A stretch of 64,000 bases of DNA from Parcubacteria group bacterium (lineage in GTDB: Bacteria; Patescibacteriota; Patescibacteriia; Magasanikbacterales; GCA-002688135): positions 4,544-68,543 of the forward strand of contig NZCD01000031.1 in the NCBI GenBank assembly GCA_002688135.1, written 5' to 3'. Below the pieces are notes generated by a model, which saw only the letters and a program-made list of their open reading frames with translations, did not search any database and had not been told where the DNA came from. Below, one piece after another: positions 18,545 through 62,650 of the stretch. The stretch's first letter is position 1. Each line of letters starts with the position of its first letter. The position numbers and the translations under genes are program-made.

Positions 18545-18548
18545 ATAA

Positions 18549-26609: not shown

Positions 26610-26642
26610 CACGCAGTGTCATCCCGGCGCAGGCCGGGATCC
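26606..26642. repeat. Family-C element, half copy (GTGTCATCCCGGC-gcag-GCCGGGATCC)
   Basis: Hairpin TCCCGGC/GCCGGGA with a tetraloop plus a GGATCC site, starting at the stop codon of the upstream gene. Confidence 0.65.
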
Positions 26643-26648
26643 AGTATT

Positions 26649-31617: not shown

Positions 31618-31686
31618 TGTCATCCCGGCGAAGGCCGGGATCCATGCTGATTAGCAAGATGGATCCCGGCCTTCGCCGGGATGACA
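31618..31686. repeat. Family-C element, full palindrome (TGTCATCCCGGCGAAGGCCGGGATCC - 17 nt - GGATCCCGGCCTTCGCCGGGATGACA)
   Basis: Perfect 26-bp inverted arms, each itself a hairpin with a GAAG loop. Creates spurious ORFs on both strands. Confidence 0.8.
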
Positions 31687-33380: not shown

Positions 33381-33449
33381 TGTCATTCCGGCGAAGGCCG
33401 GAATCCATCTCGATAGTCAGCATGGATCCCGGCCTTCGCCGGGATGACA
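33381..33449. repeat. Family-C element, full palindrome variant (TGTCATTCCGGCGAAGGCCGGAATCC ... GGATCCCGGCCTTCGCCGGGATGACA)
   Basis: Inverted arms with 2 mismatches and a 17-nt spacer, between the Nudix and LbH genes. Confidence 0.8.
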
Positions 33450-34172: not shown

Positions 34173-34269
34173 AAAAGCTAGGTGTAAGGTTTTAGGTGTA
34201 AGGTGTAAGCAAAAAAATCGCGAAGCGATCCTTAAACCTCAAACCTAAAACCTTACACCTAAATCCAAT

Positions 34270-34914: not shown

Positions 34915-37517
34915 CGATCGTCATTCCTTGTTACAACGAAGAAGATAATATTCCAGGATTAAAGACCATTCTAGAACCAGAGCTCAAAGCTCTGGATCTT
35001 GATTATGAGATTGTGGCGATCGATGACGGAAGCATAGATAGTACGCAGGCACGCTTATATGAAAGTGATGTAGAAAATTTACGAGTCGTTCAGCATTTCA
35101 AAAATGGGGGAGTCGGCGCTGCAATCAGAACAGGAATTGCACACGCGCAAGGAGATCAAATTGTATTGCTGGATTCTGACATGACATTTCATCCAAAGTA
35201 TATTAAAGATTTAAAAGAGAGATACGACCAAGGTGATGTAGAAGCTGTGATAGGATCGCATGGGTTGGCTGGATATGCAGATGACATTCCAAAATGGCGT
35301 GTAGGGGTAAGCAAGGCAGCGAATCTTGCATACTCGCTTGCGGCTGGAACACGAGTCCATGGAATAAGTTCCATTTTCAGAATAATGGATGCAGAAGCAG
35401 CAAGACGAGTAAAACTCGAAACAACAAGTTTTGATACTCCAACAGAATTATTTTTCAAAATGCATTTCGATGGATCACGATATGTGGAAATCCCAACACC
35501 AATCGGCAATCGTGAATTCGGATCATCAAAATTAGATTACAAAAAAGAAATCCCTCGCCACATGAAATTACTTTCGAGAGTATTTGGGTGGCGACTCAAG
35601 TCTAAAAAAAAAGCGATAAGTGCCAAAGGCACTTGTCGTCCCGGCGAAGGCCGGGATCCAGTGAGGAAACCACATAAGCTTGCATGGCTGGTAGCGCTCG
35701 CAATTGTTGCGCTCTATGCACTCCCACACGTTCTCATCCCTCAATGGCAAGCAGCTGCTGGAATTGAAGGATATCACCCATACTCGCTAAATGTTCCTAT
35801 ATTAGATGACGTAGCAGCATACGGAACAAGAATGCGCGAGGTGTTTGATGGACACATCGCGGACGGAGATGCATATCTCGCAGAATATAAAAATCATGAC
35901 ACAGCTTGGGGAAATATCGCACTAGCTTTTATATTAGGATTACCTGGACTGATCTTAGGATTAACTGATCCCACAAACTTATTCCTATTTTATTCAGTCA
36001 TATTTCCAGCCCTAGCTTTTTTCGTACTATACAAACTCTCATACAAAATACTCGGAAAGCGAGAAATTCCAGCGGTACTGCTCGCACTTGTCACAACGAT
36101 ATTCCCCAACATCCTCATTGCAATCCGCGCAGGATTATCTAACCCTTCGCTCTTCCACCCATTTCAATTTGTCGCCACCGCATTTGATCCAGCACTCACC
36201 CGAAGCTTCATACCATCACCAGGAATAATAATTTGGTTTGGATTCATGTATATGCTGTATCGTGTGGTGGTCGAAAAAAGAAAACAAGATATCATGAAGG
36301 CAGGCCTGCTCTTAGGCGCGCTATTTTATGTCTACTTCTACTATGCTGCATTTGCAGCATTCACAACAATCATAATCACCGCACTACTGTATTTCAGAAA
36401 ACGAGCGCATGAAACAATGTTGGTGGGCATAACCGGTCTTATTGTCGCATTACCATATTTCATCAAAACATTTAGTTTACAGGCACAACCATACTATCAC
36501 GCAATGTCAGAGCGAGTTGGGTTAGTATTCGGAAGAACATTTGATCAGTCATCTTACAAAACCATTCTCATCACATTATTTGTGATTGCTATCGCCGGTA
36601 TTGTCATCAAAAACAAAAATAAAGTAACGTTTCTTGCAGGAGCTTTATTGCCAATTGGAATCGTATTAAATCTTCAATTGTTACTCGGATTCAACCCACA
36701 ACCAGATCATTGGGGATCTCGCGTAAACGTTTACATGCTTGTCTGGACAATTGGTGTCGTTACATACGCTATCTACCACAAAATAAAACCAGATAAGAAT
36801 TGGAAAAAAGCGGAGCGACTTTCCATGCTTGCGGTGATCTTACTATTGTTGGGAAGTGCATTTCACATACATCTCAACGAAAGAAAAGTAACTGCAGCTC
36901 GCTATACAATCGCGCCAGATATTCAGGAATCATTTGCATGGATCAATGAGAATGTAGATAAAGATAGCGTGATAATCTCACCATCAACCAGAACAAGTAC
37001 CTACACACCATTCTTCACACATGCAAATGTATATGTACCCCTCGCATGCTACACCGTCGCAGATCACGATGAAGTTATAGAAAGATACAACTACACTCGT
37101 CATCTATTTCGCGTGACACAGGAAATGACAAACAACACTCTCAAAGGTTCATACAACGAGTTCGAAAATCCGGTGCGTGCAATTGATTTGGATAATATTT
37201 ATACGGTATTTTGTGATACATTAAGAACACGCTACGGAAAGGACTACACAAATTCAGGAAGTGAAAGAGTATTGCCAGAAAAAGAAGAGAAGCAAATTCA
37301 GGATAGCTACGACAGTATACAGCTTTCAGGAATAGTAAAGCTCCCACATCAAGCAAACTACATCTATAATGGCCCGCATGAAAAATTCCTGGGAAATTTC
37401 AATCCAGATGAATGGGATAACATCGAACAAGTATATAGCGAAGGCCAAGTAGACATCTATAAAATCCTGGATCCCGCCGAAGTTTATGCTGGCGACAGCG
37501 AGGCAGTGCGGGAATGA
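34887..37517 (+). CDS. GT2 glycosyltransferase (DPM1-like) fused to a large polytopic membrane domain with a C-terminal extracytoplasmic domain
   Basis: N-terminal LTIVIPCYNEEDNI, VAIDDGSIDST and LDSDMT. After aa ~250 the linker AISAKGTCRPGEGRDPV is encoded by a family-C half element. About 13 TM helices and a ~250-aa soluble tail follow. The membrane part is paralogous to the 42373 protein. The start may instead be 34908 (MLTIVIP). Confidence 0.65.
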   Translation: MSHCEGNMLTIVIPCYNEEDNIPGLKTILEPELKALDLDYEIVAIDDGSIDSTQARLYESDVENLRVVQHFKNGGVGAAIRTGIAHAQGDQIVLLDSDMTFHPKYIKDLKERYDQGDVEAVIGSHGLAGYADDIPKWRVGVSKAANLAYSLAAGTRVHGISSIFRIMDAEAARRVKLETTSFDTPTELFFKMHFDGSRYVEIPTPIGNREFGSSKLDYKKEIPRHMKLLSRVFGWRLKSKKKAISAKGTCRPGEGRDPVRKPHKLAWLVALAIVALYALPHVLIPQWQAAAGIEGYHPYSLNVPILDDVAAYGTRMREVFDGHIADGDAYLAEYKNHDTAWGNIALAFILGLPGLILGLTDPTNLFLFYSVIFPALAFFVLYKLSYKILGKREIPAVLLALVTTIFPNILIAIRAGLSNPSLFHPFQFVATAFDPALTRSFIPSPGIIIWFGFMYMLYRVVVEKRKQDIMKAGLLLGALFYVYFYYAAFAAFTTIIITALLYFRKRAHETMLVGITGLIVALPYFIKTFSLQAQPYYHAMSERVGLVFGRTFDQSSYKTILITLFVIAIAGIVIKNKNKVTFLAGALLPIGIVLNLQLLLGFNPQPDHWGSRVNVYMLVWTIGVVTYAIYHKIKPDKNWKKAERLSMLAVILLLLGSAFHIHLNERKVTAARYTIAPDIQESFAWINENVDKDSVIISPSTRTSTYTPFFTHANVYVPLACYTVADHDEVIERYNYTRHLFRVTQEMTNNTLKGSYNEFENPVRAIDLDNIYTVFCDTLRTRYGKDYTNSGSERVLPEKEEKQIQDSYDSIQLSGIVKLPHQANYIYNGPHEKFLGNFNPDEWDNIEQVYSEGQVDIYKILDPAEVYAGDSEAVRE
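35634..35659. repeat. Family-C half element (TTGTCGTCCCGGCGAAGGCCGGGATCC) lying in-frame inside a CDS
   Basis: Exact GGCGAAGGCCGGGATCC core at the GT2/membrane domain junction of the 34887..37517 ORF. Confidence 0.65.
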
Positions 37518-39280: not shown

Positions 39281-39309
39281 TTGACATTTTAGCCACAGAT
39301 GCTTATACT
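39281..39309 (+). promoter_or_regulatory. Consensus sigma70 promoter TTGACA - 17 nt - TATACT (TGcT-extended)
   Basis: Perfect -35 at 39281-39286, 17-nt spacer, and -10 TATACT at 39304-39309 preceded by GATGCT. Confidence 0.6.
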
Positions 39310-39480
39310 CTGAAGAATCTAGTAAGGAAATAACGTTCGGTAGATTAGGTTGATATTGGTCTTCAGTGCTGTGCATAAGCGAGAAGGCGATGTATGCGCA
39401 TCGCCGACGAGCTTTAAGCAGTACTGAAGAGGAAGAGCATCCTAAGATACCAACTTTATTTCCTTAATAGATTCTAGATT
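39310..39480 (+). promoter_or_regulatory. ~170-nt structured 5' leader (candidate cis-regulatory RNA) ahead of the methyltransferase gene
   Basis: CTTCAGTGCTG (39361-39371) pairs with CAGTACTGAAG (39419-39429) and encloses the GGCGATG-tatgcg-CATCGCC hairpin. No CDS; no tRNA-like features. Confidence 0.3.
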
Positions 39481-40102: not shown

Positions 40103-41236
40103 ATGAAATTATCCTACATCGCAAACATGAGGCTTCCATCAGACCGCGCACATGCATGGCAAATTATGCGCATGTGTCAGGCTTTTGCGAACAATAATCA
40201 TGATGTCACGCTCTACGTTCCAAAACGTAAAACAGATAGTGATAAAAATCCGTTCGAGTATTACAACTTACAACCAAATTTCAAAATCAAAAGAATTCCA
40301 GTCATTGATCTATTTCCTATCAAATGGATGCCACGCAAAATCGCGTACTGGGTAAACACATTCACGTTTTCAATCGGACTCATGTTCAAATTGGGAAAGA
40401 TGAAAAAAGGTATCGTATATTCCCGTGATCCATTCTCAACCTTCGCAATCGGAAGATTCGTGAAAGATTGGTGTTACGAAGTTCACGACTCCCCTAAAAA
40501 AACATTTCTCAATAAGATTCTCTTTGGCGGAATCAAGCATGTTGTTGCGACAAATACATGGAAAAGAAATCAGCTCGCTGATACTTTCAATCTAAACAAA
40601 GATGAAATGAACATCGCGCATCATGGGGTTGATGTAGATGTATTTGCAGAACTCCCTCAAAAGCATGAGGCATTTCGCGTAACAGGATTATCACCGCAAT
40701 ATAATCACGTGGTATACACAGGCCATTTATTTGAATGGAAGGGTGTATATGCACTAGCACGAGCTTCACGATTTCTCGATCAAAATACACGCGTTGTGCT
40801 GGTGGGAGGGACTCCAGAAGATGTAGAAAAGATGCAGGATTTCATCGATAGAGAGCAATTAGACCGCGTACAATTAACAGGTTTCAAACAGCGAGCCGAC
40901 ATGCTACACTATGTGGCTTGTGCTGATTTATTCGTCATTCCAACTTCAGCGAAATTCCAAATTGGAATGTATGAATCATCACCACTCAAGTTATTTGAAT
41001 ACATGGCAACTGGAAAACCTATTGTTGCGACAGACCTTCCAGCTATACGTGATATTGTAGATGAGACCATGGTAGAGTTTTGCGAACCGGACAAGGCTTC
41101 GCAGTTAGCACAAATCATCACGCAAACATTAGAACAACCATCACAACAAAAAATACAAACAGCTGCTGACTATGTGAAAAAGAATACATGGGAAGCACGC
41201 GCAAAAAAATTAGTAACATTCATACATGGAAAATAG
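40103..41236 (+). CDS. Glycosyltransferase family 4
   Basis: ESSPLKLFEYMATGKPIVATDLPAIRDIV (EX7E). The track start (40025) overlaps the upstream gene; the ATG at 40103 follows a GGAGAAG RBS and the upstream stop. Confidence 0.8.
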   Translation: MKLSYIANMRLPSDRAHAWQIMRMCQAFANNNHDVTLYVPKRKTDSDKNPFEYYNLQPNFKIKRIPVIDLFPIKWMPRKIAYWVNTFTFSIGLMFKLGKMKKGIVYSRDPFSTFAIGRFVKDWCYEVHDSPKKTFLNKILFGGIKHVVATNTWKRNQLADTFNLNKDEMNIAHHGVDVDVFAELPQKHEAFRVTGLSPQYNHVVYTGHLFEWKGVYALARASRFLDQNTRVVLVGGTPEDVEKMQDFIDREQLDRVQLTGFKQRADMLHYVACADLFVIPTSAKFQIGMYESSPLKLFEYMATGKPIVATDLPAIRDIVDETMVEFCEPDKASQLAQIITQTLEQPSQQKIQTAADYVKKNTWEARAKKLVTFIHGK

Positions 41237-42179
41237 CGAGCAATGCCCAGTATGCGCATCGACTGAAAGAACAGTTGTTGCAACCATCGGTGATTTAAAT
41301 AAACCGCTCACCAACGTGATTTGCGAATCATGTGGTTTGATTTTTATTACCCCGCGAAAACAAATCGCAGAAGTAGAAGAATTCCATGTAGAAGATTTTT
41401 TGAAAAATAAAGGATACGAAGAAGCTGATCACTTTGAACACAAATTGAGTGCATCAGAAATTCCAACGAAAAAACGCATCGCAGAAGTTATCATTCCTCA
41501 TATGCCAGGCGGGGGAACGGTGTTAGATGTTGGGTGTGGAATTGGAACGCTCGTAAGTATTTTGCTGGACCGAGGGTACAAGGCTGAAGGGATTGAATTA
41601 GCACGAATCGAGATTGAAGCAGCAAAGAAGTTCTATGATGTAGACCTATATTTGGGAAGCTTAAGAAAATACGCTACAGAACATCCGGAAAAGAAGTTCG
41701 ATATGATCGTTCTGCATCACACACTCGAACACATGACAGACCCACAAGGCGAACTACACTTCATGAAATCAATGCTATCTGAAAATGGAAAAATCTATAT
41801 CGGCGTACCAAATGTAACAAACATGAAAAAAAGACCAGAAGTCTATTTTGAATCAGGTCATGTTGTAACATACTCGCCGCGCTCGCTAGCTCACGCACTG
41901 GAAGCACAAGGACTATATCCATCATACTTCTCAACCAAGGCGGTGTATCCAGGAGGAATGGGTGTGATTGCTGGAACTAAGCCCGCAGACAACACAGCAT
42001 TATTACAAAAAGAAATGAAAGGTATGGGTCATCCAAAAGATGTGAAATATTACATCAAGAAAAAGGGTGCTCAATTTGCTACAGCTCGTGTCTGTCGAGA
42101 TATTGGATTATTCTTCATTCCGAAAAAAGCTCGAGTCAAAATAGGTCGGGCAATTTCAAATTGGATGAAAAATAGATAG
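41226..42179 (+). CDS. Class-I SAM methyltransferase with N-terminal Cys4 zinc-ribbon
   Basis: CPVCAS...CESCG zinc ribbon; VLDVGCGIGTL motif I; MLSENGKIYIGVP. Paralog of the 49228 gene. Confidence 0.75.
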   Translation: MENSEQCPVCASTERTVVATIGDLNKPLTNVICESCGLIFITPRKQIAEVEEFHVEDFLKNKGYEEADHFEHKLSASEIPTKKRIAEVIIPHMPGGGTVLDVGCGIGTLVSILLDRGYKAEGIELARIEIEAAKKFYDVDLYLGSLRKYATEHPEKKFDMIVLHHTLEHMTDPQGELHFMKSMLSENGKIYIGVPNVTNMKKRPEVYFESGHVVTYSPRSLAHALEAQGLYPSYFSTKAVYPGGMGVIAGTKPADNTALLQKEMKGMGHPKDVKYYIKKKGAQFATARVCRDIGLFFIPKKARVKIGRAISNWMKNR

Positions 42180-42180
42180 A

Positions 42181-42367
42181 CCACGAATGGTACAAATCAA
42201 ATACAAATCTACAAATCTCCGCTAAGTCACTAGGAGTGTCATCCCGGGCTTGATCCGGGATCCAAAGTTCGCAGCTGGATCCCGGATCAAGCCCGGGATG
42301 ACAGTCGGTCTGGTTGTTGCTAGACGAGCATTTGTAGATTTGTAGAAAATTTGTATTATTCGAGGGA
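42181..42367. mobile_element. Family-B MITE-like element (~187 bp) with ~37-bp terminal inverted repeats CCACGAATGGTACAAATCAAATACAAATCTACAAATC; carries a nested family-C palindrome
   Basis: Left TIR at 42181-42217 and right TIR at 42329-42367 (GCATTTGTAGATTTGTAGAAAATTTGTATTATTCGAGGG). The inner palindrome spans 42237-42303. Confidence 0.7.
42237..42303. repeat. Family-C-related perfect palindrome (TGTCATCCCGGGCTTGATCCGGGATCC ... GGATCCCGGATCAAGCCCGGGATGACA) nested in MITE B1
   Basis: 27-bp arms around a 13-nt spacer. Shares the TGTCATCCCGG / GGATCC cores with family C. Confidence 0.75.
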
Positions 42368-42372
42368 AAAAC

Positions 42373-44220
42373 ATGAAAAACCCACTAACAAACAAAACCC
42401 TACAAATAATCATAGCTGCGACACTCGCGGGGTTCTTTTTTATAGGAAGACATTTGACGATGTGGTGGTATCAGCTGCAGCAGGGCGCACCATTCAACTT
42501 TTTTACTTTTGAGCAAATCGATCCGCTTTCAAATCTCGCGCCTATTTTCAGACAGGTTTTGGATGGGGGGTTATATGTTACGGATGGACGAGTTTTGGAA
42601 TGGGTTGCAGGACCAAGTCTGTGGTCGATATTATCTCCAATAGTCGGATATCCAATTTTAGCTATCACACAAAACATATCTCTAACATTTTTGATTGGAA
42701 CATTACTATCAGCAGTCTTAACATTTATCGCAGCATACGCAATCGCAAAACATCTAACGAAAAATCACTGGTGGGCGATCTTATCATCATTTATATTTGT
42801 AAACGCAACACTCATTGTATTATTTATTCTGCCGATTGATATTGAAGGATTAAAAGTTCTAGCAAGATCATTTTGGCTAGGTTCACCTCCAGGAGATATT
42901 TTGATGAGTAGATATGTCAGTTTTTCAGTTTTCCCAACCTGGCCAGTATTTGTATTTTCATTACTTGGATTATTAAAACTTGCAGCAAACCCAACATCAA
43001 AAAAATGGTTCTGGTTCACCGCAATCTCGTGCGCAATGCTCACACACATGTATGTCACAGATGCGATGTACATTTTCGGCGGGATGGCATTAATGGTGGT
43101 TTGGTTCTTTTTACAAACAGATACACAACGAGCAAAAACATATCTTAAAACAATATTTCTTTCTACTGCATTATCAGCGCCATACATTTTCAATTATCTC
43201 TCAATCCAAGCTCTCCCGCATGCACAAGAGTTAGTTGAACGACTCGGCGCAGAATTCACACATAGTTTTCGTGTAAGCGCATGGCCACAATATTTGGTAA
43301 TGATAATTCTAGCCTACGGAGTTTGGAAATGGGGGAAAGCAGAAAACAGAACTCCAGAAGCAACAGTAATTGGATCTTTAGTTCTCGGTGGAATCGGAAT
43401 TTTGAACATGCAATTGATTTTGGGATTCAATCCACATCCTCCGGTTTGGCCTGTACATCAATTTTATTTAGGATATGCCGCAGCATTCCTTGTAATCGCG
43501 CATCTATTTATTACACATGGATTAAGATCAGCATGGCTTAAAAAAGCCGGAACAACAGTTTTAGTAATTGCATCAGTCGCAGTTATTGGACGAGCAATCC
43601 AAGCAGAATTTATTTCAGGGACACACTTTCAAGAATCATCAGTCATGCCAGAAAATATCCGAAACTCACTAGAATGGATTAACGATAATACACCAACAAA
43701 CAGTGTCGTCGCATCACCATCAGCAACAACAAATAGCTTAATTCCTGTATTTACCGGGGCACACTCAATCCAACCTCTTGCTGTTACCTCCGCCGCGCCA
43801 CTATCAGAAGTAGTTGGACGCTGGTTGACCATCTCAAAGCTCTATGGTATTCCTGAAACAACTCTGGTAACATCTCTGAAAAAAGAGCACACAGATATCG
43901 ACAATTTTGCTCTCGATTCAGAAAACGCAACTGCCATATTCCTCTTCGATACATTCTTCTGGAAAAAGGGATTGGGCGCATTCGATGAAGGCCGACAATT
44001 ATTCATTCCAGATGAAGCGATCGAAAAGATTATTGCCGAATATCAAGCGCTTCCAGAGGGTGAAGAATTGCTTAAAACATATCGAATGGATTATCTATAT
44101 GTTGGACCATACGAACGGGCACTTGTCATGAAAGACCTGGACTACGAATTTCTTAAAAAAGTCTATGACGAAGATGACGTTCAAATTTATAAAATCAATC
44201 AATCATTTCTAGAATTATAG
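42373..44220 (+). CDS. Polytopic membrane protein with C-terminal extracytoplasmic domain; paralog of the membrane moiety of the 34887 GT2 fusion (candidate GT-C-like transferase/polymerase)
   Basis: Shared blocks: LGGIGILNMQLILGFNPHPPVW vs LPIGIVLNLQLLLGFNPQPDHW; PENIRNSLEWINDNTPTNSVVASPSATTNS vs PDIQESFAWINENVDKDSVIISPSTRTST; and C-terminal QIYKI vs DIYKIL. Confidence 0.55.
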   Translation: MKNPLTNKTLQIIIAATLAGFFFIGRHLTMWWYQLQQGAPFNFFTFEQIDPLSNLAPIFRQVLDGGLYVTDGRVLEWVAGPSLWSILSPIVGYPILAITQNISLTFLIGTLLSAVLTFIAAYAIAKHLTKNHWWAILSSFIFVNATLIVLFILPIDIEGLKVLARSFWLGSPPGDILMSRYVSFSVFPTWPVFVFSLLGLLKLAANPTSKKWFWFTAISCAMLTHMYVTDAMYIFGGMALMVVWFFLQTDTQRAKTYLKTIFLSTALSAPYIFNYLSIQALPHAQELVERLGAEFTHSFRVSAWPQYLVMIILAYGVWKWGKAENRTPEATVIGSLVLGGIGILNMQLILGFNPHPPVWPVHQFYLGYAAAFLVIAHLFITHGLRSAWLKKAGTTVLVIASVAVIGRAIQAEFISGTHFQESSVMPENIRNSLEWINDNTPTNSVVASPSATTNSLIPVFTGAHSIQPLAVTSAAPLSEVVGRWLTISKLYGIPETTLVTSLKKEHTDIDNFALDSENATAIFLFDTFFWKKGLGAFDEGRQLFIPDEAIEKIIAEYQALPEGEELLKTYRMDYLYVGPYERALVMKDLDYEFLKKVYDEDDVQIYKINQSFLEL

Positions 44221-44221
44221 T

Positions 44222-45160
44222 ATGGAACGAAAACGAGTTTTAGTAACAGGAGGAGCAGGATATGTGGGATCAGTATTGGTCCCGGAACTTTTGAGTAAGG
44301 GATTCGAAGTGACTGTTCTTGATAACCTATCATACAATAATGGTCGCTGCATTTTACAAAATTTCTACAGCAATCATTTTCAGTTTGTGAAAGGGGATAT
44401 ACGAGATCGCGTTTTGGTAGATAAACTCGTTGGTCAGGCAGACCACATCATCCACCTAGCAGCGATTGTGGGATATCCGGCATGTCGCAAAGATGAACGT
44501 TTAGCCCAAGAAGTAAATGTGATCGGAACAGAAAATATTGCACGTGCAGTGCAGCCTCATCAAACAATTCAATTCGCTTCAACAGGTTCTGTATACGGAG
44601 CGATTGGAGAAACATGTACGGAAGAGACTGTGGCGAATCCACTCACGATCTACGGAAAAAATAAACTCGATGCTGAAAACATTTTGAAAGAACACTGCAC
44701 ACCAATCATCTATCGCTTCGCAACTGCGTTTGGATTGGCCGGTCGCTTACGAATGGATTTGATGATTAATGATTTTGTATATCAAGCAATTCATACGAAA
44801 CACCTAATCGTGTATGAAAAGCATTTCCGACGTACATTCATTCATGTGAGAGATATTGCGCGTGTGTTTGTGCATGGTCTGGAAAAGTATGAAGAAATGA
44901 AGGGACAAACATACAATGTGGGACACGAAACAATGAACTACACAAAAGAAGACATTGTGAACAAAATTCGAGCACGCGTGCCATTTTATCTTCACTTTGC
45001 GGAGTTTGCGAAAGATCAAGATCAACGAGACTACGAAGTAAACTATCAGAAAATTCGTGCAACAGGATTTGAAACAAAAATTTCAATGGACACAGGATTA
45101 CGTGAGTTGATGGACGCGCTAGAAATCGTCACTATCCCTAATCCATACTCAAATATATAG
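44222..45160 (+). CDS. NAD-dependent sugar-nucleotide epimerase/dehydratase (extended SDR)
   Basis: VLVTGGAGYVGSVLV (GxxGxxG); STGSVYG; YGKNK (YxxxK). Confidence 0.8.
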   Translation: MERKRVLVTGGAGYVGSVLVPELLSKGFEVTVLDNLSYNNGRCILQNFYSNHFQFVKGDIRDRVLVDKLVGQADHIIHLAAIVGYPACRKDERLAQEVNVIGTENIARAVQPHQTIQFASTGSVYGAIGETCTEETVANPLTIYGKNKLDAENILKEHCTPIIYRFATAFGLAGRLRMDLMINDFVYQAIHTKHLIVYEKHFRRTFIHVRDIARVFVHGLEKYEEMKGQTYNVGHETMNYTKEDIVNKIRARVPFYLHFAEFAKDQDQRDYEVNYQKIRATGFETKISMDTGLRELMDALEIVTIPNPYSNI

Positions 45161-45381
45161 CCCACGAATGGTACAAATCATTTACAAATCTACAAATCCT
45201 CGATTAGCAACAGCCCGACCAACTGTCATTGCGAGCGTTTTAGCTAAGCAATCTGATTCCACAAACTGGATTCTATCGACGGAGCCTGCACTGGAGTAAA
45301 GTGATAGGGACTCCAGAATGACGCACTAAGTAGTTAGGCGGAAATTTGTAGATTTGTAGTAGATTTGTAATATTCGTGGGA
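45161..45381. mobile_element. Family-B MITE-like element (~220 bp) with the same TIRs; inner part carries the TGTCATTGCGAGCG motif
   Basis: TIRs CCCACGAATGGTACAAATCATTTACAAATCTACAAATC / GGAAATTTGTAGATTTGTAGTAGATTTGTAATATTCGTGGG. Confidence 0.7.
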
Positions 45382-45389
45382 ATAAAAAT

Positions 45390-46358
45390 ATGAATTTAAA
45401 AAACTATTACTTAGGAAAGCGAGTCATGATCACCGGCGGTGCCGGATTTTTGGGCAGTGAGATTATCAAACAACTCGCAGGGTTTGATTGTGAAATTATT
45501 GTACCTCGAAAAAAGAATTACGATTTAACAAGTCAGGAAGATGCGTTGGCATGTGTACGACAATCTAAACCCCATGTGATTATTCATGCAGCAGCATGGT
45601 ACGGAGGCCCTCCAATTCACGAAGCATACCCTGCAAAAATGTTTTACGAAAACACGATGATGGGAATGAATGTTATGCATGCATCACATCTGTGCGATGT
45701 AGAAAAAGTTGTGATCATCGGATCAGATTGCGCATATCCCGGATATCTCGGAAAAGAAGTATTATCAGAAGATGATTTATTTTCTGGAAAACCACATGCA
45801 TCAGCAATTGATTACGGAATGGTAAAACGATTCCTTTCGGTGCAAGCATGGGCATACAACAAACAATACGGATTAAATGCAAACTTCCTCATTCTCACAA
45901 ACATGTACGGAGAAGGGGACAACTTCAATCCAGAATCATCACATGTTGTTGGCGCACTTATTCGAAGGTTCACTGAAGCAGTAATAGAAAATAAAGATGA
46001 AGTAGAAGTTTGGGGATCAGGAAAACCAACACGAAACTTTTTGTATGTGAAAGATGCAGCGCAAGGTGTGATTCGTGCGACAGCGTTATATGATTCTCAC
46101 GAACCAATCAACATTACAACAGGACAAGGAAACTCAATTAAGGAGCTTGCTGAAACAATTGCAGAAGTCACAGGATTCCGCGGACGACTAAAATGGCTCA
46201 CAGAAAAACCAGACGGACAAATGAAAAAAGTTCTGGATGTTTCAAGAATGAAAGAACATTTGAATTGGCAGCCGGAATTTACACTGAAACAAGGATTAGG
46301 AAACACTGCGAATTGGTATAAGGCGAATAAGGAGGTCGCAGACGCTAAAAAGAAATAG
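45390..46358 (+). CDS. fcl: GDP-L-fucose synthase (GDP-4-keto-6-deoxy-D-mannose 3,5-epimerase/4-reductase)
   Basis: VIIHAAAWYGGPPIHEAYPAKMFYENTMMGMNVMHASHLCDVEKVVIIGSDCAYP and NMYGEGDNFNPESSHVVGALIRRF align block-for-block with Fcl/WcaG (VYLAAAKVGG..NTYPADFIYENL..NVIHAAH..V.KLLFLGSSCIYP; NLYGPHDNF.P.NSHVIPALLRRF). 322 aa. Confidence 0.85.
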   Translation: MNLKNYYLGKRVMITGGAGFLGSEIIKQLAGFDCEIIVPRKKNYDLTSQEDALACVRQSKPHVIIHAAAWYGGPPIHEAYPAKMFYENTMMGMNVMHASHLCDVEKVVIIGSDCAYPGYLGKEVLSEDDLFSGKPHASAIDYGMVKRFLSVQAWAYNKQYGLNANFLILTNMYGEGDNFNPESSHVVGALIRRFTEAVIENKDEVEVWGSGKPTRNFLYVKDAAQGVIRATALYDSHEPINITTGQGNSIKELAETIAEVTGFRGRLKWLTEKPDGQMKKVLDVSRMKEHLNWQPEFTLKQGLGNTANWYKANKEVADAKKK

Positions 46359-46560
46359 CCCGCGAATATTACAAATCAACTACAAATCTACAAATCCTTG
46401 ACTAGTAGCTCTGTAAATAGGCTGTCATTGCGAGCGCTTTAGCGTGGCAATCTGAAGCCAGATTGAGATTGCCACGCTAAAGCGCTCGCAATGACGTGTT
46501 GGTCGAGTGGTTGCTAAACGAGCATTTGTAGATTTGTAAAAGATTTGTACTATTCGTGGG
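46359..46560. mobile_element. Family-B MITE-like element (~200 bp); inner part is a TGTCATTGCGAGCGCTTTAGCGTGGCAATC ... palindrome
   Basis: TIRs CCCGCGAATATTACAAATCAACTACAAATCTACAAATC / GCATTTGTAGATTTGTAAAAGATTTGTACTATTCGTGGG. Inner 28-bp perfect inverted arms at 46424-46496. Confidence 0.7.
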
Positions 46561-46571
46561 TCAAAAAGGTT

Positions 46572-47285
46572 ATGCAGCCAAAAGTTTCAATCATGATTCC
46601 AATATGGTCCGAGGTAGATTCTCTCAAAGTGGTAGTCGACGGACTCTACGAACGAATCGGAGATTACATACATGAAATATTTTTCATCGTCGCGCCGCAG
46701 TCATCTGCTGCGTGTTTTAATATGTGCCAAAGATTGGCGTCGGAACATCCAGAAATACAAGTGATGATTCAAAAAGTATGCCCGGGGTTGGGACATGCAT
46801 ATAAACAAGTATTTCCACATGTCACAGGAACACACATGCTAGTCATTGATGCAGATGACGAAATGGATTTAGACACAGTCCCTAAAATGGTAGCTGCCGC
46901 AGAACAAGGATATGATTTAGTTTTACCTACGAGATGGATGCCAGGAGGAGGAGTAAAAGGATACGACACCATGACGTATATTTTAAATAGAGGATTCCAA
47001 ACAATTTTCAGATTAGTATTTCTAACACCCGCACGCGATCTCACATACGGTTTCAAACTATTCAATACAAGACTCATCAATGAAGTTGATTGGTGGGGAG
47101 AATGGCATGAGATCGCCATGGAAACAACACTCAAGCCACTCAAGCTCGGATACAAATACATTGAAATACCAACCTGGTGGAAAGCGCGCACACAAGGAGT
47201 TTCAAAAATAAACACTCTCAAAAGAATGCGATACGTAAAATTCGCACTACGTATTAGATTCGCAAATATCAAAAAGCGTATTTAA
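46572..47285 (+). CDS. GT2 glycosyltransferase (DPM1-like)
   Basis: VSIMIPIWSEVDSL and LVIDADDEMD (DxD). The track start (46545) was trimmed to MQPKVSIMIP. Confidence 0.65.
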   Translation: MQPKVSIMIPIWSEVDSLKVVVDGLYERIGDYIHEIFFIVAPQSSAACFNMCQRLASEHPEIQVMIQKVCPGLGHAYKQVFPHVTGTHMLVIDADDEMDLDTVPKMVAAAEQGYDLVLPTRWMPGGGVKGYDTMTYILNRGFQTIFRLVFLTPARDLTYGFKLFNTRLINEVDWWGEWHEIAMETTLKPLKLGYKYIEIPTWWKARTQGVSKINTLKRMRYVKFALRIRFANIKKRI

Positions 47286-47881
47286 TTTCTCTCCCACACA
47301 CTCAACCATTGTGGTGTGTTCATGAATTTTAAGGTAGAATAGGTCTGCGTTATCGGCAGATCTTTTGTTATGGTATCAAGTTTTTTAGGGTTAAGTTTGT
47401 TGACATGCATGTCACGCGAGCGCATCGGATTTCCATATAATGTAATCGCTGCGCGCGTTGCAGCCATCCCACGGAATAATTCCCATGGATAGACAGCAAC
47501 ATATTTCCCACCAGGTTTTAAAACACGAGCAATCTCCTCAAAGTGTTTGAGAAGTTCTGGGATATGTTCAATCGTATGAGATGAGTATGCCCGATCAAAT
47601 GACGAATCAGGAAATGTCATTGCTGTGCCGTCCATCACTATTGCCTCGTTGCCAGTATTCTGTGAAATCGCAAACTCATTAATATCAATTCCTACACATC
47701 TCTCAACCGCAAGCTCAAACTTCCGCTGCGTATACCCAACATCACATCCAACCTCAAGCAAATGATGATCACTACGCAATTCCAATAAATCAAAAAGCGC
47801 GGCGTCTACCGCGTCATAATTCATGATAATGTCATTTTCGCGATCACGAAGCACCTCTTGTGAATACCGTCTATCGTACAT
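47282..47881 (-). CDS. Class-I SAM-dependent methyltransferase (antisense to the surrounding operon)
   Basis: LLEVGCDVGYT (motif I) and LKPGGKYVAV. Its stop overlaps the stop of the 46572 gene (TTAA). Its ATG abuts the ATG of the 47882 gene (CATATG). Confidence 0.7.
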   Translation of the reverse strand: MYDRRYSQEVLRDRENDIIMNYDAVDAALFDLLELRSDHHLLEVGCDVGYTQRKFELAVERCVGIDINEFAISQNTGNEAIVMDGTAMTFPDSSFDRAYSSHTIEHIPELLKHFEEIARVLKPGGKYVAVYPWELFRGMAATRAAITLYGNPMRSRDMHVNKLNPKKLDTITKDLPITQTYSTLKFMNTPQWLSVWERN

Positions 47882-49222
47882 ATGAACTTGTTACGAAACT
47901 TATTTCGATCAAAACGTGAGACAAGTATATTCTTTTTTGCGCTAGCCGTCCAGTCTATTATTCTCTATCTCACAATGAAAACCGCTTCTGGTGGTTTTTT
48001 GTGGACATCAGATGCAGAACTCTATTTTGATTTAGGACGAAACCTCCTCGAGACAGGAGGATTTTACATGCATCCAGATCTCGACCCGCAAACCATCCGA
48101 ACGCCACTGTATCCATTATTTGTCGCAGGATTATACGGACTCACACACTCACTATTTTTTGTCATCGCAATTCAAAATATAATCGCTGCGTATGTACTAG
48201 TGATTATCTATCGCATTGGTGCAACACTTGTTTCAGAAAGAGTAGCATTAATCGGCACAGTATTATTTATGCTCGAAGCTCGCCGATTGACCAACGCATC
48301 ACAACTCATGTCAGAAACACTTTTCATGCTATTTTTCGCTCTAAGTATCTACTGGCTGATAATATATCTCAAAACAAAACAAGACAGAAAACTAATCATC
48401 GGAAGCGCGATTGCTGCAGGACTCGCTATTATGACACGACCATTTCTGATCCCAGTCATTCCACTTTTTGTATTACTCATCCTATTTGTTTTTTGGAAAA
48501 AGAAGTTTGCTATCAAACATGCTGCGCTCTATGTGATTCTCGTAATCGCTGTCATCATGCCATGGTCCGCCCGAAATTATTATCACTTCAAAACAATCAA
48601 TCCAATCTCAACTGCTGGTGCAAATGCATATTTAACAGCAGCACCACGCTTCCTGGAATATTATGAACCAGGAGAAGAAAGGTATGCAGGGCTCGTGACA
48701 CAGGCAGTGGGAGATCTCAATTACACGGGACTACCACATCTCACACCAGAAGAATCATTTGTGAGATTCGGAATTTTCGAATTTCAATATCAAGATTATC
48801 TAACCACGCACGCACGCGAAATCATCTCTCAAGATTATCTTTTATTCGGACGTGTTATCGCACAAAAGATGGGAGTATTTTTCATAGAAAGTTCTGCATC
48901 AAGATCCTATAGCATACTATTCCACCAACTAAATCCACCACAACAAATCTTCTATCCATTCCTATATTTCGGCGGGCGAATCTGGTGGGCAATTATGTTC
49001 TTGCTGATGGCATTTGGATTCTGGAAATATCTTGCCACTCACAAAGACAAAGCTTCGCGAGGTATCATAGCAACAATAATCATCATGATGTTATTCTTCG
49101 CTTTTATATCATCAATGAATAAAGATACTCCGCGATTACGAATTCCAATCACACCATTTATAACCTTGTTTGCGGCCTACGGTGCAACTATTGCCATGAA
49201 GTATAAATTGTGTAAGGATTAG
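47882..49222 (+). CDS. Polytopic membrane glycosyltransferase, GT-C-like (ArnT/PMT_2/GT39-83-like)
   Basis: About 11-12 TM helices. First extracytoplasmic loop TSDAELYFDLGRNLLETGGFYMHPD resembles the ArnT/PMT acidic first-loop motif. No soluble domain. Confidence 0.45.
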   Translation: MNLLRNLFRSKRETSIFFFALAVQSIILYLTMKTASGGFLWTSDAELYFDLGRNLLETGGFYMHPDLDPQTIRTPLYPLFVAGLYGLTHSLFFVIAIQNIIAAYVLVIIYRIGATLVSERVALIGTVLFMLEARRLTNASQLMSETLFMLFFALSIYWLIIYLKTKQDRKLIIGSAIAAGLAIMTRPFLIPVIPLFVLLILFVFWKKKFAIKHAALYVILVIAVIMPWSARNYYHFKTINPISTAGANAYLTAAPRFLEYYEPGEERYAGLVTQAVGDLNYTGLPHLTPEESFVRFGIFEFQYQDYLTTHAREIISQDYLLFGRVIAQKMGVFFIESSASRSYSILFHQLNPPQQIFYPFLYFGGRIWWAIMFLLMAFGFWKYLATHKDKASRGIIATIIIMMLFFAFISSMNKDTPRLRIPITPFITLFAAYGATIAMKYKLCKD

Positions 49223-50154: not shown

Positions 50155-51512
50155 ATCCGACCTTACTACAAATAATCCGAGGAATCGGAGCAATAGCAGT
50201 TTCAAATGTGGTGGGACGATTAAGCTCATTTACAACAGTCGTTCTACTGACGACTGCGTTGTCATTATACGAATATGGTTTGGTGATGTTGGCTCTTGCA
50301 ATAACCGGGCCAGTTTTGGCAATCATGTCTCTCGGGTTGGATGATATGATTCTAGCCGACACATCACGCTATCTCGCAGACGGAAAAAGATCACACGCAA
50401 AAAGAATGCTCGTGGGGTATCTATCAGTAAAAGCAGTTCTGCTTGTCGCGCTAATTATAAGTGGTTATTTCTTCCGTGATTTTCTCGCGACAAAATACGG
50501 AACACTCATTACAGACGCTTCACTCATCCTATTACTCTATGTAGTTCTTCAGTATTTTAGAACCTCATACAACACAATTCTACACATCCACAAAAGATTC
50601 AAAACCCTTGCATTCTGGAATTCAATCGAGCCAATCGCCCGACTTATATTCGTGGCTGTAGCATTTGCAGTAGGAGGAATTAATGTGATGGTTGCGCTAG
50701 CGTCATATGTCGCATCTTCTGCGGTGACTATTGTAGGAGCAACACCACAACTTCTTGCAATAGCAAAGACATATCTCAAAGTTCCAAAACTACAACAACC
50801 ACTTTTTAGAATCGCCATGAAAGCTCATGGAAAATGGCAATCCGCACTTTCAATGCTAGGAAGTTTCACAGGTGCAGCCGGAGTATATATCATCAAATAT
50901 TTACTCTCTACAGAAGCAGTTGCTATTTTCTCGGTCGCACAAAGCATGTTCTCTGCGATCGCATCACTCACTCCAATTAAAACTGTCATGGTGCCATTCA
51001 TATCACAATGGTCTACAAATAAAGAACGTCTCAATCAGGTGCTGAAAAAAATTACCAAATATTCCATGTTGATGTACGGGGTAATTATGATAGCTGCAAT
51101 TACTATAGGTCCAGAATTGATACATGTATTCTTTCCAAAATACACAGCCTCTATTCTTGTCTTTCAGATACTTTCTATTCGGTTGTTACTCAACACATTT
51201 TCAATTACGCAATCACCGACGCTCACTGCACTACGTGATCAAAAGTTCATGTCCGGTTTGAGCATATTCAAATTGATTATGCTAGTACTCCTAGCACCTC
51301 CACTGATTATGAAATTCGGAGTGATTGGGGCAGTTCTCGAAATTATCATCACAACTGCAATAATAGAACTTATTCGAGAATGGAGACTACGAACCCGCTA
51401 TGGAATCAAAACAACAACAATTCAGTCATTTTTCACTTTCGATCATATCGATAGGATGATTCTAAACCGAATGAAACAGTTCGGTCATATCATCAAGCAG
51501 AAACTTAAATGA
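50151..51512 (+). CDS. Polysaccharide/oligosaccharide flippase-like membrane protein (MOP superfamily, Wzx-like)
   Basis: 453 aa with ~12-14 TM helices. N-terminus LLQIIRGIGAIAVSNVVGRLSSFTTVVLLT is typical of the Wzx/PST family. Overlaps the upstream stop. Confidence 0.5.
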   Translation: MNPTLLQIIRGIGAIAVSNVVGRLSSFTTVVLLTTALSLYEYGLVMLALAITGPVLAIMSLGLDDMILADTSRYLADGKRSHAKRMLVGYLSVKAVLLVALIISGYFFRDFLATKYGTLITDASLILLLYVVLQYFRTSYNTILHIHKRFKTLAFWNSIEPIARLIFVAVAFAVGGINVMVALASYVASSAVTIVGATPQLLAIAKTYLKVPKLQQPLFRIAMKAHGKWQSALSMLGSFTGAAGVYIIKYLLSTEAVAIFSVAQSMFSAIASLTPIKTVMVPFISQWSTNKERLNQVLKKITKYSMLMYGVIMIAAITIGPELIHVFFPKYTASILVFQILSIRLLLNTFSITQSPTLTALRDQKFMSGLSIFKLIMLVLLAPPLIMKFGVIGAVLEIIITTAIIELIREWRLRTRYGIKTTTIQSFFTFDHIDRMILNRMKQFGHIIKQKLK

Positions 51513-51720
51513 GACCGGTACGATACTCCTGTGCGGGTGTAATGTAGATATTTTTTTCTCAGTTGTGTGAAAAACGACGAGGAAATATGGATCTATTGCC
51601 GAGGAGTTTTGAGCACATCTGAGGAAAAAAGAGCACATCACGCGTGTGCACGGAGTATTGTGCCGGTCTATCAAAAAACCCTTGCGAAAATAGGAGATAT
51701 GCGGTAAGATTCCGTCCACT

Positions 51721-53163
51721 ATGAAGACTATATTCATGACCATTTCTAGGGGTGGAACCGCACGAAATCTCTTGCAAAGTGAGGTATTTAGTGCGCTCAA
51801 AGAGTCTGGAAACAAACTGGTTATTATTGCACCTGCATCAGAGGATGGGACTTTTCAGAAACTCTGTGATGCTCCAAATATACATCTTGAAAAAATGGTT
51901 GAGCTGCCGTGGCGATGGGCAGATCGAGTTTTGGTAGGGATTCACAAGGGACTAATTTACAATAAGAGCACGATGTTCCGTGATAAGTTCGGAATTTACG
52001 ATCCTAAAGAGGGGAGCATGTTCAAGTACTGGATGCGAAAAATTTTTATTGCGCCATTTTCAAAATCAAAATCTCTCAAAAGATTTGCTAGAAAATTAGA
52101 TAAAGTAATAGCACCCGCACGACACTACGAAGAAATTTTTTCAAAACACAAACCAGACGTTCTTTTTTCGACAAGCATGATTGAAGATCAAGAAGTTGAA
52201 ATCATGAAACAAGCGGAAGCTCATGGTGTGCCAATAATCGCAATGCCAAAAACATGGGACAATCCATCAAAAATAAATCTTCGAGTAAAACCGAATAAGA
52301 TAATTGTGTGGGGAGAATATTCAAGAGATGAGGTGGTAAAATATTCGGCAATAGACGAAAAAGATATTGAGGTGTGCGGAATTCCACAATTCGACACATA
52401 TCGAAATATCGATCTGATTGATACACGCGAAGAATTTTGCACAAAATGGGGATTTGATCCAAACAAAAAAATTATTGTATTTGGATCTGAAGGCCGCATC
52501 ACACCACAAGATAAAGACATCGCCAGTCAGATTGCCGCTTGGGTAAAAAATGGTGGGATTGAAAATTCGCAATTGTTCATACGGCCTCACTTCATGTATC
52601 CGGAAGATCCCAAAAAATTCAAAAACATCGAAGCACAAGAAAATGTAAAAGTTGATAATTCTTGGAATCGAATTGATGGGTTTCGTGACAATTGGGATTA
52701 TTCAATGAAACAAATTTCACATTTCGCAAATCTGATGGTTCATGCGGATCTAATGATAACAACAGGCTCAACACTTTCAATAGACGCAGCTGCAACTGAC
52801 ACGCCAGTCATCAATATATATTTTGACACGCCAGATCCAAAACCATTTAACGAATCTGTGAGACGCTGGTACACATCAGAACATTACTCTCATGTGCTTG
52901 AAACTGGAGCTGTAAGTTTGGCACATTCAATGGAAGAGCTGAAAGAATACACAAAACGATATCTCAAAACACCATCTATCAGACAACAGCAAAGAAAAAA
53001 CTTGATTGAAAAATTTGGATACAAAAACGACGGAAAATCCGCAGAAAGAATCGCAGCTTCTGTTCTTGCGTTTATTGGCGAAGAACCTAAATCTCACACA
53101 CACCATGATTCTGTATTAATAACTAAGAGTGAAAAACAAGAACAGAAAGTAATGAGTAATTAG
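51721..53163 (+). CDS. GT-B-like transferase with RPH motif; TagB/TagF (CDP-glycerol glycerophosphotransferase)-like. Alternative reading: CMP-sugar (sialyl/Kdo)-transferase-like
   Basis: Motif order FGSEGRI ... IRPHFMYPED ... LMITTGSTLSIDAAATDTPVINIYFD mirrors the TagF-family order YAPTWR ... K/RPHP ... ISDYSS..D..LL.KPII. Paralog of the 56029 gene. The last codons lie in element A3. Confidence 0.4.
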   Translation: MKTIFMTISRGGTARNLLQSEVFSALKESGNKLVIIAPASEDGTFQKLCDAPNIHLEKMVELPWRWADRVLVGIHKGLIYNKSTMFRDKFGIYDPKEGSMFKYWMRKIFIAPFSKSKSLKRFARKLDKVIAPARHYEEIFSKHKPDVLFSTSMIEDQEVEIMKQAEAHGVPIIAMPKTWDNPSKINLRVKPNKIIVWGEYSRDEVVKYSAIDEKDIEVCGIPQFDTYRNIDLIDTREEFCTKWGFDPNKKIIVFGSEGRITPQDKDIASQIAAWVKNGGIENSQLFIRPHFMYPEDPKKFKNIEAQENVKVDNSWNRIDGFRDNWDYSMKQISHFANLMVHADLMITTGSTLSIDAAATDTPVINIYFDTPDPKPFNESVRRWYTSEHYSHVLETGAVSLAHSMEELKEYTKRYLKTPSIRQQQRKNLIEKFGYKNDGKSAERIAASVLAFIGEEPKSHTHHDSVLITKSEKQEQKVMSN

Positions 53164-53238
53164 TAATGAGTAAAGCGGTCGGCGAAGCCGACAAAAAGCC
53201 ACAGGCTTTACCTCATTACTAATTACTCATTACGCGCT
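53148..53238. repeat. Family-A hairpin element (AGTAATGAGTAATTAGTAATGAGTAAAGC / GCTTTACCTCATTACTAATTACTCATTAC) with nested GTCGGC-gaa-GCCGAC hairpin
   Basis: ~28-bp near-perfect arms. The inner 57 nt are near-identical (3 mismatches) to the copy at 62575. Overlaps the stop codon of the 51721 gene. Confidence 0.75.
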
Positions 53239-53250
53239 ACTAAATTTTCT

Positions 53251-57402: not shown

Positions 57403-57470
57403 TGAGTAATGAGTAATGCGGGCTATCGCCTTGCGCGATCGCTTTACGCTTTACTCATTACGCATTACGA
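57397..57470. repeat. Family-A hairpin element (CGTAATGAGTAATGAGTAATGCG / CGCTTTACTCATTACGCATTACG)
   Basis: Inverted GTAATGAG arms overlapping the stop codon of the 56029 gene. Inner GC-rich palindrome GCGATCGC. Confidence 0.65.
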
Positions 57471-57476
57471 ATCTAT

Positions 57477-61627: not shown

Positions 61628-61726
61628 TGTCATCCCAAGCGCTTATTCTAAAAAATATTTTTCTCTGGAGCCTGCCCTCGCGGATGCGGGGGAGGGATCC
61701 CTCGACTAAAACGCTCGGGATGACAG
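61628..61726. repeat. Family-C element variant (GTGTCATCCCAAGCG ... GAGGGATCCCTCGACTAAAACGCTCGGGATGACAG)
   Basis: Termini TGTCATCCC / GGGATGACA with an internal GGATCC. The right half is the reverse complement of the C2 terminal unit. Confidence 0.6.
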
Positions 61727-61835
61727 TTTCCGAATGCATTCAGGTATCCTCACAGCAACCTTGACAAAAGGCCGCAAAAAAAGTAGCATAACCGAAATAC
61801 TTGATACTTTATTCTTAATACTTGATACGTATTTC

Positions 61836-62579: not shown

Positions 62580-62650
62580 TGAGTAAAGCGGTCGGCGAAG
62601 CCGACAAAAAGCCGTAGGCTTTCCCTCATTACGCTTTACTCATTACGCGT
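62561..62650. repeat. Family-A hairpin element, near-identical core to the 53148 copy
   Basis: GTAATGAGTAAAGCGGTCGGCGAAGCCGACAAAAAGCCGTAGGCTTTCCCTCATTAC. Overlaps the stop codon of the 61836 gene. Confidence 0.75.

Follow-up and report, generated by a model that had tools for sequence, protein, structure and literature searches.

Three gene-less hairpin elements in a glycosylation operon of a Parcubacteria group bacterium belong to a heptad-array inverted-repeat family whose arms flank GxxExxY genes in other genomes

The described systems closest to the elements reported here are the REP doublets forming hairpins (REPINs) with their REP-associated tyrosine transposases (RAYTs), where REP stands for repetitive extragenic palindromic sequence, and the miniature inverted-repeat transposable elements (MITEs) of bacteria, such as Correia/NEMIS, ERIC, RUP and Nezha. 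In REPIN/RAYT systems a single small nuclease-type gene lies between two copies of a short repeat in opposite orientation, inverted doublets of the repeat that lack the gene are scattered in intergenic gaps as hairpins of about 100 nucleotides (nt), and the type of repeat co-varies with the protein. Bacterial MITEs are short, non-coding, multi-copy, intergenic and co-transcribed, are bounded by terminal inverted repeats (TIRs), form hairpins, vary between relatives and are able to nest. Intervening sequences of 23S rRNA that carry an open reading frame (ORF) have a long inverted-repeat stem with a small, selfish-looking ORF in the loop, and genes for homing endonucleases of the PD-(D/E)XK type (I-Ssp6803I) are small, insertion-like nuclease genes whose specificity co-varies with their flanks. 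These features recur in the elements described here, three copies of which lie in a stretch of 64,000 nt from contig NZCD01000031.1 of a Parcubacteria group bacterium; this whole stretch is called the window below. Here we show that the three window elements are gene-less members of an inverted-repeat family found across the Candidate Phyla Radiation (CPR), and that arms of the same type flank a gene for a GxxExxY protein, predicted to have a PD-(D/E)XK fold, in other genomes.

The original prediction had placed three MITE-like elements of one family (family B) in the window. Their coordinates were essentially right; the refined limits of the copies and of their arms are as follows.

42181 to 42366, plus strand: family-B copy 1, 186 nt, from a methyltransferase gene (stop 42177-42179) to a gene of 615 amino acids (aa) without Pfam match (ATG 42373)
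42181 to 42216, plus strand: left arm of copy 1, four heptads, CCACGAAT-GG-TACAAAT-CAAA-TACAAAT-C-TACAAAT
42330 to 42366, plus strand: right arm of copy 1, ATTTGTA-G-ATTTGTA-GAAA-ATTTGTA-TT-ATTCGAGGG
45161 to 45380, plus strand: family-B copy 2, 220 nt, from the epimerase gene (stop 45158-45160) to the fcl-like gene (ATG 45390)
45161 to 45197, plus strand: left arm of copy 2
45344 to 45380, plus strand: right arm of copy 2
46359 to 46560, plus strand: family-B copy 3, 202 nt, from the fcl-like gene (stop 46356-46358) to the family 2 glycosyltransferase (GT2) gene (ATG 46572)
46359 to 46395, plus strand: left arm of copy 3
46524 to 46560, plus strand: right arm of copy 3

The arm core TACAAATCTACAAATC occurred six times at no more than two mismatches, once in each arm, against 0.15 occurrences expected, and none of 100 shuffles equalled this count. 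The outer arm motif CCACGAATNNTACAAATC was present at all six arms, and the arms of each pair were complementary at 81-95% of positions across 36-37 nt, thereby confirming the TIRs of about 37 nt that had been proposed. Each copy folds into a single long hairpin, with energies of -113.1, -80.7 and -119.7 kcal/mol and z-scores of -16.8, -7.7 and -17.7 for copies 1, 2 and 3, respectively. None of the three contains an ORF, and their description as non-coding, TIR-bounded, multi-copy, nested composite elements is borne out. That all three share one orientation is not secure, because 26 subterminal nt inside the left arm of copy 2 correspond, when reverse-complemented, to the 26 nt that adjoin the right arms of copies 1 and 3 on the inner side, which suggests that copy 2 is inverted relative to the other two.

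All three copies start right behind the TAG stop of the upstream gene and end 6-11 nt short of the next ATG. The flanking genes are, in order, the methyltransferase, the 615-aa gene, an NAD-dependent epimerase joined to it end-to-start, the fcl-like epimerase/reductase and the GT2 glycosyltransferase. The elements had been assigned to the gaps between the epimerase, fcl and GT2 genes; this holds for copies 2 and 3, but copy 1 lies between the methyltransferase and the 615-aa gene.

Read in register, a window arm consists of CCCAC(G/A)AAT, a spacer, TACAAAT, a 4-nt spacer, TACAAAT, C and TACAAAT. We scanned one-genome-per-species assemblies with a 23-base arm pattern, TACAAATCNNNTACAAATCTACAAAT, and obtained 84 stretches, nearly all from Patescibacteria/CPR assemblies. 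The lineages included Moraniibacteriota, Falkowbacteria, Buchananbacteria, Kuenenbacteria, Komeilibacteria and Uhrbacteria, and several assemblies held 4-6 exact matches apiece. The search for further copies suggested by the original prediction thus returned dispersed elements, and not a local duplication. The pattern had no match in viral contigs, and the family-A arm, TTACTCATTACGC, was absent from the fetched loci. The consensus arm of the family comprises four heptads, CCCACAAAT-C-TACAAAT-Cnnn-TACAAAT-C-TACAAAT, and is mirrored on the opposite side. Two-armed elements numbered 40, the three window copies included. Their modal length was 96 nt, with 36 nt in each arm and about 24 nt in the loop, and they nearly fill stop-to-start gaps, pointing either way with respect to the genes. 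The window copies are enlarged forms of this element, set apart as a separate subfamily by three traits not seen in the consensus: CACGAAT as the outer unit, a first spacer of 2 nt and a subterminal segment of about 26 nt.

In 7 of the 84 arm-selected loci (L068, L050, L051, L047, L045, L037 and L070) the arms abut an ORF of about 125 aa. Both arms were visible in six of these; the seventh locus (L070) ends inside the ORF. The gene-bearing unit is intergenic and 460-500 nt long, with the start codon touching the left arm and the stop touching the right arm. The ORF matched TIGR04256 'GxxExxY protein' (E = 5e-30 to 1e-28) and PF13366 PDDEXK_3 (E = 3e-29), and it was the only kind of gene found between arms of this type. 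Since the GxxExxY gene is flanked by the same arms in the same arrangement in other genomes, gene and arms form one unit. Units with an arm design identical to that of the window arms were found in L099, L101, L050 and L068, and the window arms have the form that we propose for GxxExxY heptad arrays: inverted, with at least three tandem xACxAAT heptads and CCC/GGG-type termini. One assembly, JBAZBJ01, held a gene-bearing unit (L050) alongside gene-less hairpins (L004, L020 and L056).

The association was also seen in reverse, starting from the protein. Nearly all of 80 metagenome loci that had been fetched by the GxxExxY protein alone carried inverted tandem-heptad arrays around the ORF. The heptads were TACAAAT, TACGAAT, TACTAAT, AACGAAT, CTCTAAT, TACGGAT and TACGAAA, and a paralogue in L055 (33% identical) had ACAGAA-type arrays. 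The class of heptad tracked protein similarity: identity was 0.59 within a class as compared to 0.53 between classes, with none of 2000 permutations as extreme, and for 43 of 75 proteins the nearest neighbour had the same class of heptad, where chance would give 22%. When a strict hairpin detector was run beside GxxExxY loci it returned only four gene-less hairpins, two of the same class as the gene and two of another, too few to be informative. Outside CPR, a GxxExxY gene on a Gemmatirosa plasmid is followed by a hairpin of three CGCGGAT and three ATCCGCG units, and a Treponema GxxExxY gene is flanked by an 11-nt inverted repeat.

Residues E38, D77, E87 and K89 were invariant in 75 GxxExxY sequences. 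The predicted fold is that of a minimal PD-(D/E)XK nuclease with an intact E...D...ExK site, and the protein is likely to be an active nuclease. A sequence search of solved structures returned no GxxExxY relative. The family is large, with about 11,000 cluster representatives at 50% identity, among which tandem two-domain proteins of about 260-275 aa (P0256, P0267, P0268, P0281 and others) are common. A survey of PD-(D/E)XK proteins lists the function of the GxxExxY/PF13366 family as 'Unknown'. Our literature search found nothing that links GxxExxY, TIGR04256, PF13366 or PDDEXK_3 to repeats, nor MITE or REP elements in CPR to such an association. The association thus offers this orphan family a concrete candidate ligand, DNA or possibly RNA, in the form of heptad-array inverted repeats.

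We next consider what is conserved in the arms. Among arms on which the search pattern imposed no constraint, conservation was at least 90% at heptad positions and only 30-60% in the inter-heptad spacers, and spacer positions were complementary between the two arms only 20-30% of the time. For 32 elements oriented by their flanking genes, Watson-Crick pairs were found in 53 of 192 spacer cells, which is the chance level, and the transcribed strand showed no excess of G-U over A-C mismatches (26 as compared to 22). Selection therefore acts on the heptad sequence, and not on RNA pairing or on the stem itself: selection for RNA pairing does not fit because heptads are conserved in each arm while spacers are neither conserved nor complementary, and the hairpin exists because both arms carry identical heptads in mirror orientation. 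The heptads would then serve as a series of sites recognised by their sequence, the simplest candidate for the recognising factor being the co-varying GxxExxY protein.

These measurements bear directly on the proposal that the hairpins are not mobile DNA but host regulatory RNA under selection, serving as RNase III sites, mRNA stabilisers or gates that sequester a ribosome-binding site. Such a role would agree with their position inside operons, from stop codon to start codon, with the 3' GGG or GGGAG that overlaps a Shine-Dalgarno-like sequence in many loci, with the very high stability of the stems (z down to -17.7) and with the clustering of loop lengths near 24 nt. We nevertheless regard it as improbable. 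Besides the conserved heptads, the unpaired spacers and the lack of a G-U bias, elements occur in both orientations relative to transcription, and the filled junctions of the window are element-free in the closest relative, with its overlapping genes, and in two outgroups, with their gaps of 14-28 nt. No Rfam 15 covariance model matched anywhere in the window at its gathering score, and no terminator-type T-run was seen. A tRNA scan of the window found nothing.

Two further candidates of this kind were rejected. The stems are AT-rich, measure about 37 bp and are followed by GGG and A-rich sequence with no T-run, which does not correspond to an intrinsic terminator, and the typical loops of about 24 nt would be too short for an invertible promoter.

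The close relative is represented by four contigs (L085-L088), syntenic with window positions 41226-49222, which encode a homologue (P0002) 74% identical to the fcl-like protein. In these, the epimerase|fcl and fcl|GT2 junctions, two of the three filled in the window, are 4-nt ATGA overlaps, and no hairpin-type inverted repeat was detected across the 9.6 kb of L085. Two outgroups (L171 and L172; 56-58% identity) keep the order epimerase, fcl, GT2, with gaps of 14-28 nt. Since the overlaps of the relative and the gaps of the outgroups are short, the compact junctions are ancestral and the elements of about 200 nt were gained in the window lineage. Thus, the window copies were inserted into compact junctions of a conserved glycosylation operon after its split from the nearest sampled relatives. 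'Active proliferation', as had been suggested, goes further than this evidence, which shows only that the elements were gained after the lineage had parted from a relative with 74% protein identity.

Filled and empty junctions were also found in other genomes, at two sites among L027, L052 and L084 and between L020 and L067, with empty junctions in L052, L084 and L067. At one orthologous site L052 has a 96-nt element and L027 has the same element with 114 additional nt in its loop. At another, L052 has a hairpin of AATCAAT-type units (4815-4900), and L027 (5885-5974) and L084 (2346-2435) have a TACAAAT hairpin; this reflects either repeated independent insertion at one site or turnover of heptads in place.

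Dispersal on this scale leaves little room for a purely local origin. A duplication confined to the operon would account for the shared subfamily traits of the three copies (CACGAAT outer unit, 2-nt first spacer and subterminal segment) and for their occurrence in consecutive gaps, but is contradicted by the presence of the same arms in many genomes, at 84 loci in all. An integron-like array of cassettes with attC-type sites fares no better: the arms lack RYYYAAC/GTTRRRY core sites, and the genes are not shuffled cassettes because their order is conserved with element-free relatives. We consider either form of this explanation hardly credible.

We find it probable, taking the reading as a whole, that gene-less arms and the GxxExxY gene-plus-arms unit belong to one family of elements, in which a cognate nuclease would mobilise the gene-less copies in trans. 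On this reading the hairpins of about 96 nt and the window copies would be arms without the gene, paralleling MITEs and their transposons or REPINs and RAYT. A cognate GxxExxY nuclease made elsewhere in the genome would recognise the heptads of both arms and cut at, or close to, either the CCC/GGG ends or the extruded hairpin, permitting the element to be copied or relocated; it is by such action in trans that gene-less units may be copied or moved. Each insertion would part formerly coupled cistrons and add a 37-bp stem to the polycistronic RNA, with its 3' GGG placed next to or within the ribosome-binding region of the next gene. Insertions that uncouple overlapping cistrons of a surface-glycosylation operon may alter its expression.

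Several observations weigh against this reading. There is no GxxExxY gene within the 64-kb window. No credible target-site duplication, for which the original prediction had advised a search, and no other transposition footprint was found at the window copies, where the longest direct repeats were 8, 6 and 6 nt for cognate flanks as compared to 3-7 nt for non-cognate flanks, all A-rich; the 6-8-nt repeats are thus not distinguishable from the controls. No consistent duplication was found in the other filled/empty pairs either, the cross-species spacers being too diverged to align. To our knowledge, PD-(D/E)XK nucleases are not known to transpose by themselves. Six genomes or contigs (L050, L051, L091, L093, L099 and L101) share one position for the gene-bearing unit, immediately upstream of a dnaX-like gene, which looks like stable long-term vertical inheritance and not frequent movement. 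The correspondence of heptad class and protein, significant as it is, is loose, with 57% of nearest neighbours in the same class. Even distant lineages share a cluster of loop lengths at 24 nt, which could reflect a functional constraint. A six-frame profile search of every element of at least 120 nt, loops included, gave nothing below E of about 1 except two real genes. Because the loops are without GxxExxY coding remnants, derivation of the gene-less elements by deletion is not shown, and with no such remnants in gene-less or intermediate loops the direction could be one of gene gain.

Gene gain is the core of an opposite explanation, in which the hairpins are primary and GxxExxY behaves like a homing endonuclease: it would recognise a gene-less hairpin through the heptads, cut the loop and be copied in by repair templated on an occupied element, the gene being cargo in the way of the TGTCAT palindromes described below. 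PD-(D/E)XK homing endonucleases exist (I-Ssp6803I), and the ORF sits precisely at the loop position with both arms intact. The remnant-free loops also agree with this view. Loops accept other inserts as well, as shown by L027 compared to L052 at one site, by L032 and L080 and by the window copies, and co-variation of heptad class with the protein is what a target-specific endonuclease would produce. However, homing leaves unexplained how gene-less hairpins arrived at new junctions, as they did in the window, and would need some other mechanism of spread. Among the arm-selected loci, two-armed elements without the gene (about 40) and single arms (about 60) far outnumber the 7 units that carry it, and no pair of sites with and without the gene was found at an orthologous position. 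We therefore think homing unlikely. Homing endonuclease genes have, as far as we know, neither repeat-array TIRs nor abundant gene-less hairpin copies left behind.

The heptads could also be operator-like sites for GxxExxY acting as a regulator or defence-related nuclease, with the scattered arrays serving as regulatory or decoy sites. The independent conservation of heptads in each arm, the bracketing of the gene's own start and stop by the arms, and single arms directly before gene starts (L017/L069 and L053/L057) would suit such a role. A pure binder would not require all catalytic residues to be invariant, though, and both the presence and absence of elements at orthologous junctions and the differing hairpin families there (L052 as compared to L027/L084) indicate gain and loss, and not a conserved regulon. 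This makes an operator function very improbable.

The loops of the three window copies carry a second repeat family. Their interiors had been described as palindromes, one of family C and two of a related kind, and this was correct for copies 1 and 3, which hold complete palindromes, but not for copy 2, where half a palindrome is joined to a different module.

42234 to 42306, no strand assigned: nested TGTCATCCCGGGCTTGATCCGGGATCCA palindrome of the TGTCAT family (the 'family C' of the original prediction) in the loop of copy 1, complete (TGTCATCCCGGG...), from inverted repeat and folding
46424 to 46495, no strand assigned: nested TGTCATTGCGAGCG...CGCTCGCAATGAC palindrome in the loop of copy 3, with 33-nt arms, 97% complementary
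45223 to 45323, no strand assigned: interior of copy 2, not a palindrome, with the TGTCATTGCGAGCG left half (45223-45261, 85% to copy 3) and a different TGTCAT-type module ending CTCCAGAATGACG

The nested palindromes share one design, namely TGTCAT, a small hairpin, ATC ... GAT, a hairpin and ATGACA. The window also has free-standing TGTCAT palindromes (31618-31686, 33381-33449 and 61628-61730) and half copies (26617-26645 and 35634-35662), and TGTCAT modules are present inside family-B loops of other genomes (for example L032, L080 and the L007 group). At three CPR loci outside the window, GIY-YIG (COG2827-like) genes have TGTCAT halves or full copies on their flanks.

L042, about 4980 to 5400: TGTCAT-flanked GIY-YIG locus
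L055, about 3220 to 3730: TGTCAT-flanked GIY-YIG locus
L007, about 6950 to 7480: TGTCAT-flanked GIY-YIG locus

This arrangement suggests that TGTCAT palindromes and GIY-YIG form a second nuclease-plus-repeat system, parallel to GxxExxY with its heptads. The loop contents, earlier taken for 'cargo-swapping' between palindrome families, are better read as separate, independent nesting of this second nuclease-linked family into hairpin loops, since TGTCAT palindromes occur alone in the window and flank GIY-YIG genes elsewhere. With moderate support, it appears that the window loops received their TGTCAT-family members later.

The gene-flanking arms found in other genomes hint at an undescribed kind of mobile element. 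We suggest tentatively that GxxExxY proteins are nucleases of an unrecognised mobile or selfish class with heptad-array ends, that gene-less derivatives of it litter CPR genomes with GIY-YIG and TGTCAT as a parallel, and that the window copies are composites of both. By analogy, the same broad reading could possibly amount to a second REPIN/RAYT-like case, built on different enzymes.

The resemblance to REPIN/RAYT lies in how the elements work, and not in membership. The gene here encodes a PD-(D/E)XK GxxExxY protein that matches only TIGR04256 and PF13366, and not an IS200/IS605-like HUH/Y1 transposase. The arms are direct arrays of four heptads and are not palindromic, whereas REP has a 5' GTAG and its own imperfect palindrome. 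The present elements are found in CPR, and there are hints of them in Gemmatimonadota and Spirochaetota.

The label 'MITE-like' was right in spirit. The window elements are short (186-220 nt, below about 600 bp), non-coding, TIR-bounded, dispersed and polymorphic in their insertion. They differ from bacterial MITEs in that no target-site duplication was found, their TIRs are heptad arrays and the arm sequence is conserved over very distant lineages. The candidate partner with the same TIRs encodes GxxExxY, a predicted PD-(D/E)XK protein, and no DDE or other known transposase, a relation nearer to that of REPINs with RAYT; likewise, the IS630/Tc1 or IS200/605 partner that had been anticipated was not found between arms of this type.

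Unlike 23S rRNA intervening sequences, the elements stand in mRNA operon junctions and are linked to a different protein family. GxxExxY differs from the Cas4, Hjc and type II restriction endonuclease folds in measuring only about 125 aa, in having no sequence match to solved structures and in having no CRISPR or restriction-modification context.

If the favoured link between gene-less hairpins and a gene-plus-arms unit is right, many of the hairpins between the genes of the very compact CPR genomes would be accounted for. For annotation, such repeats produce spurious small ORFs, and they can break assemblies.

Six further intergenic hairpins of like design were noted in the window, at 17440-17556, 18545-18680, 34179-34261, 53141-53247, 57397-57472 and 62554-62660. 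Their arms consist of tandem TAC-heptads (TACAAAC/TACTCAC, TACTAAT/TACTCAT/TACGCGC and TACACCT) and their loops hold small GC hairpins. The TACTAAT-type hairpins resemble the arms around GxxExxY genes in L115-L123. All six are probably sister families of family B. A conserved sequence of about 150 nt (...GCGCAGTGCGTAGGCAAAAGACGAGTGATGAGCGTTAAGAAATTTTCAGCGAGC...) lies behind single family-B arms in four genomes (L016, L019, L035 and L077) and could represent either a structured RNA or a further repeat.

A third kind of nested insert is a small GC-rich hairpin (CCTGTCTCGCTCTGGCTTGCCAAGACGGG and similar) that interrupts the right arm of family-B elements.

L061, about 6930 to 6990: arm-interrupting GC hairpin
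L083, about 5085 to 5130: arm-interrupting GC hairpin
L014, about 4790 to 4830, minus strand: arm-interrupting GC hairpin

In the syntenic relative L085 the fcl-like gene ends ...AATCTCGCAATGACAGTATGA (5249-5269), and CTCGCAATGAC within it corresponds to the right end of the TGTCATTGCGAGCG palindrome found at this junction in the window. An earlier palindrome may have left this piece behind, to become part of the coding sequence.

Other repeats in the window are of different design. Three tandem 21-nt units, AGGCTGTCATCCC(A/G)AGCCAAT, with a TGTCATCCC motif, lie at 28761-28823, just upstream of a gene starting at 28846. Two large, very stable intergenic hairpins at 39300-39480 and 51512-51680 (-98 and -89 kcal/mol, flanks included) are built on a plan other than that of the heptad or TGTCAT elements. 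A 43-nt repeat ending CCATCATCACA(C/A) recurs in five diverged copies, spaced 150-417 nt apart at 11748-12798, within the minus-strand gene 11271-13490, where they probably encode a repeated protein domain.

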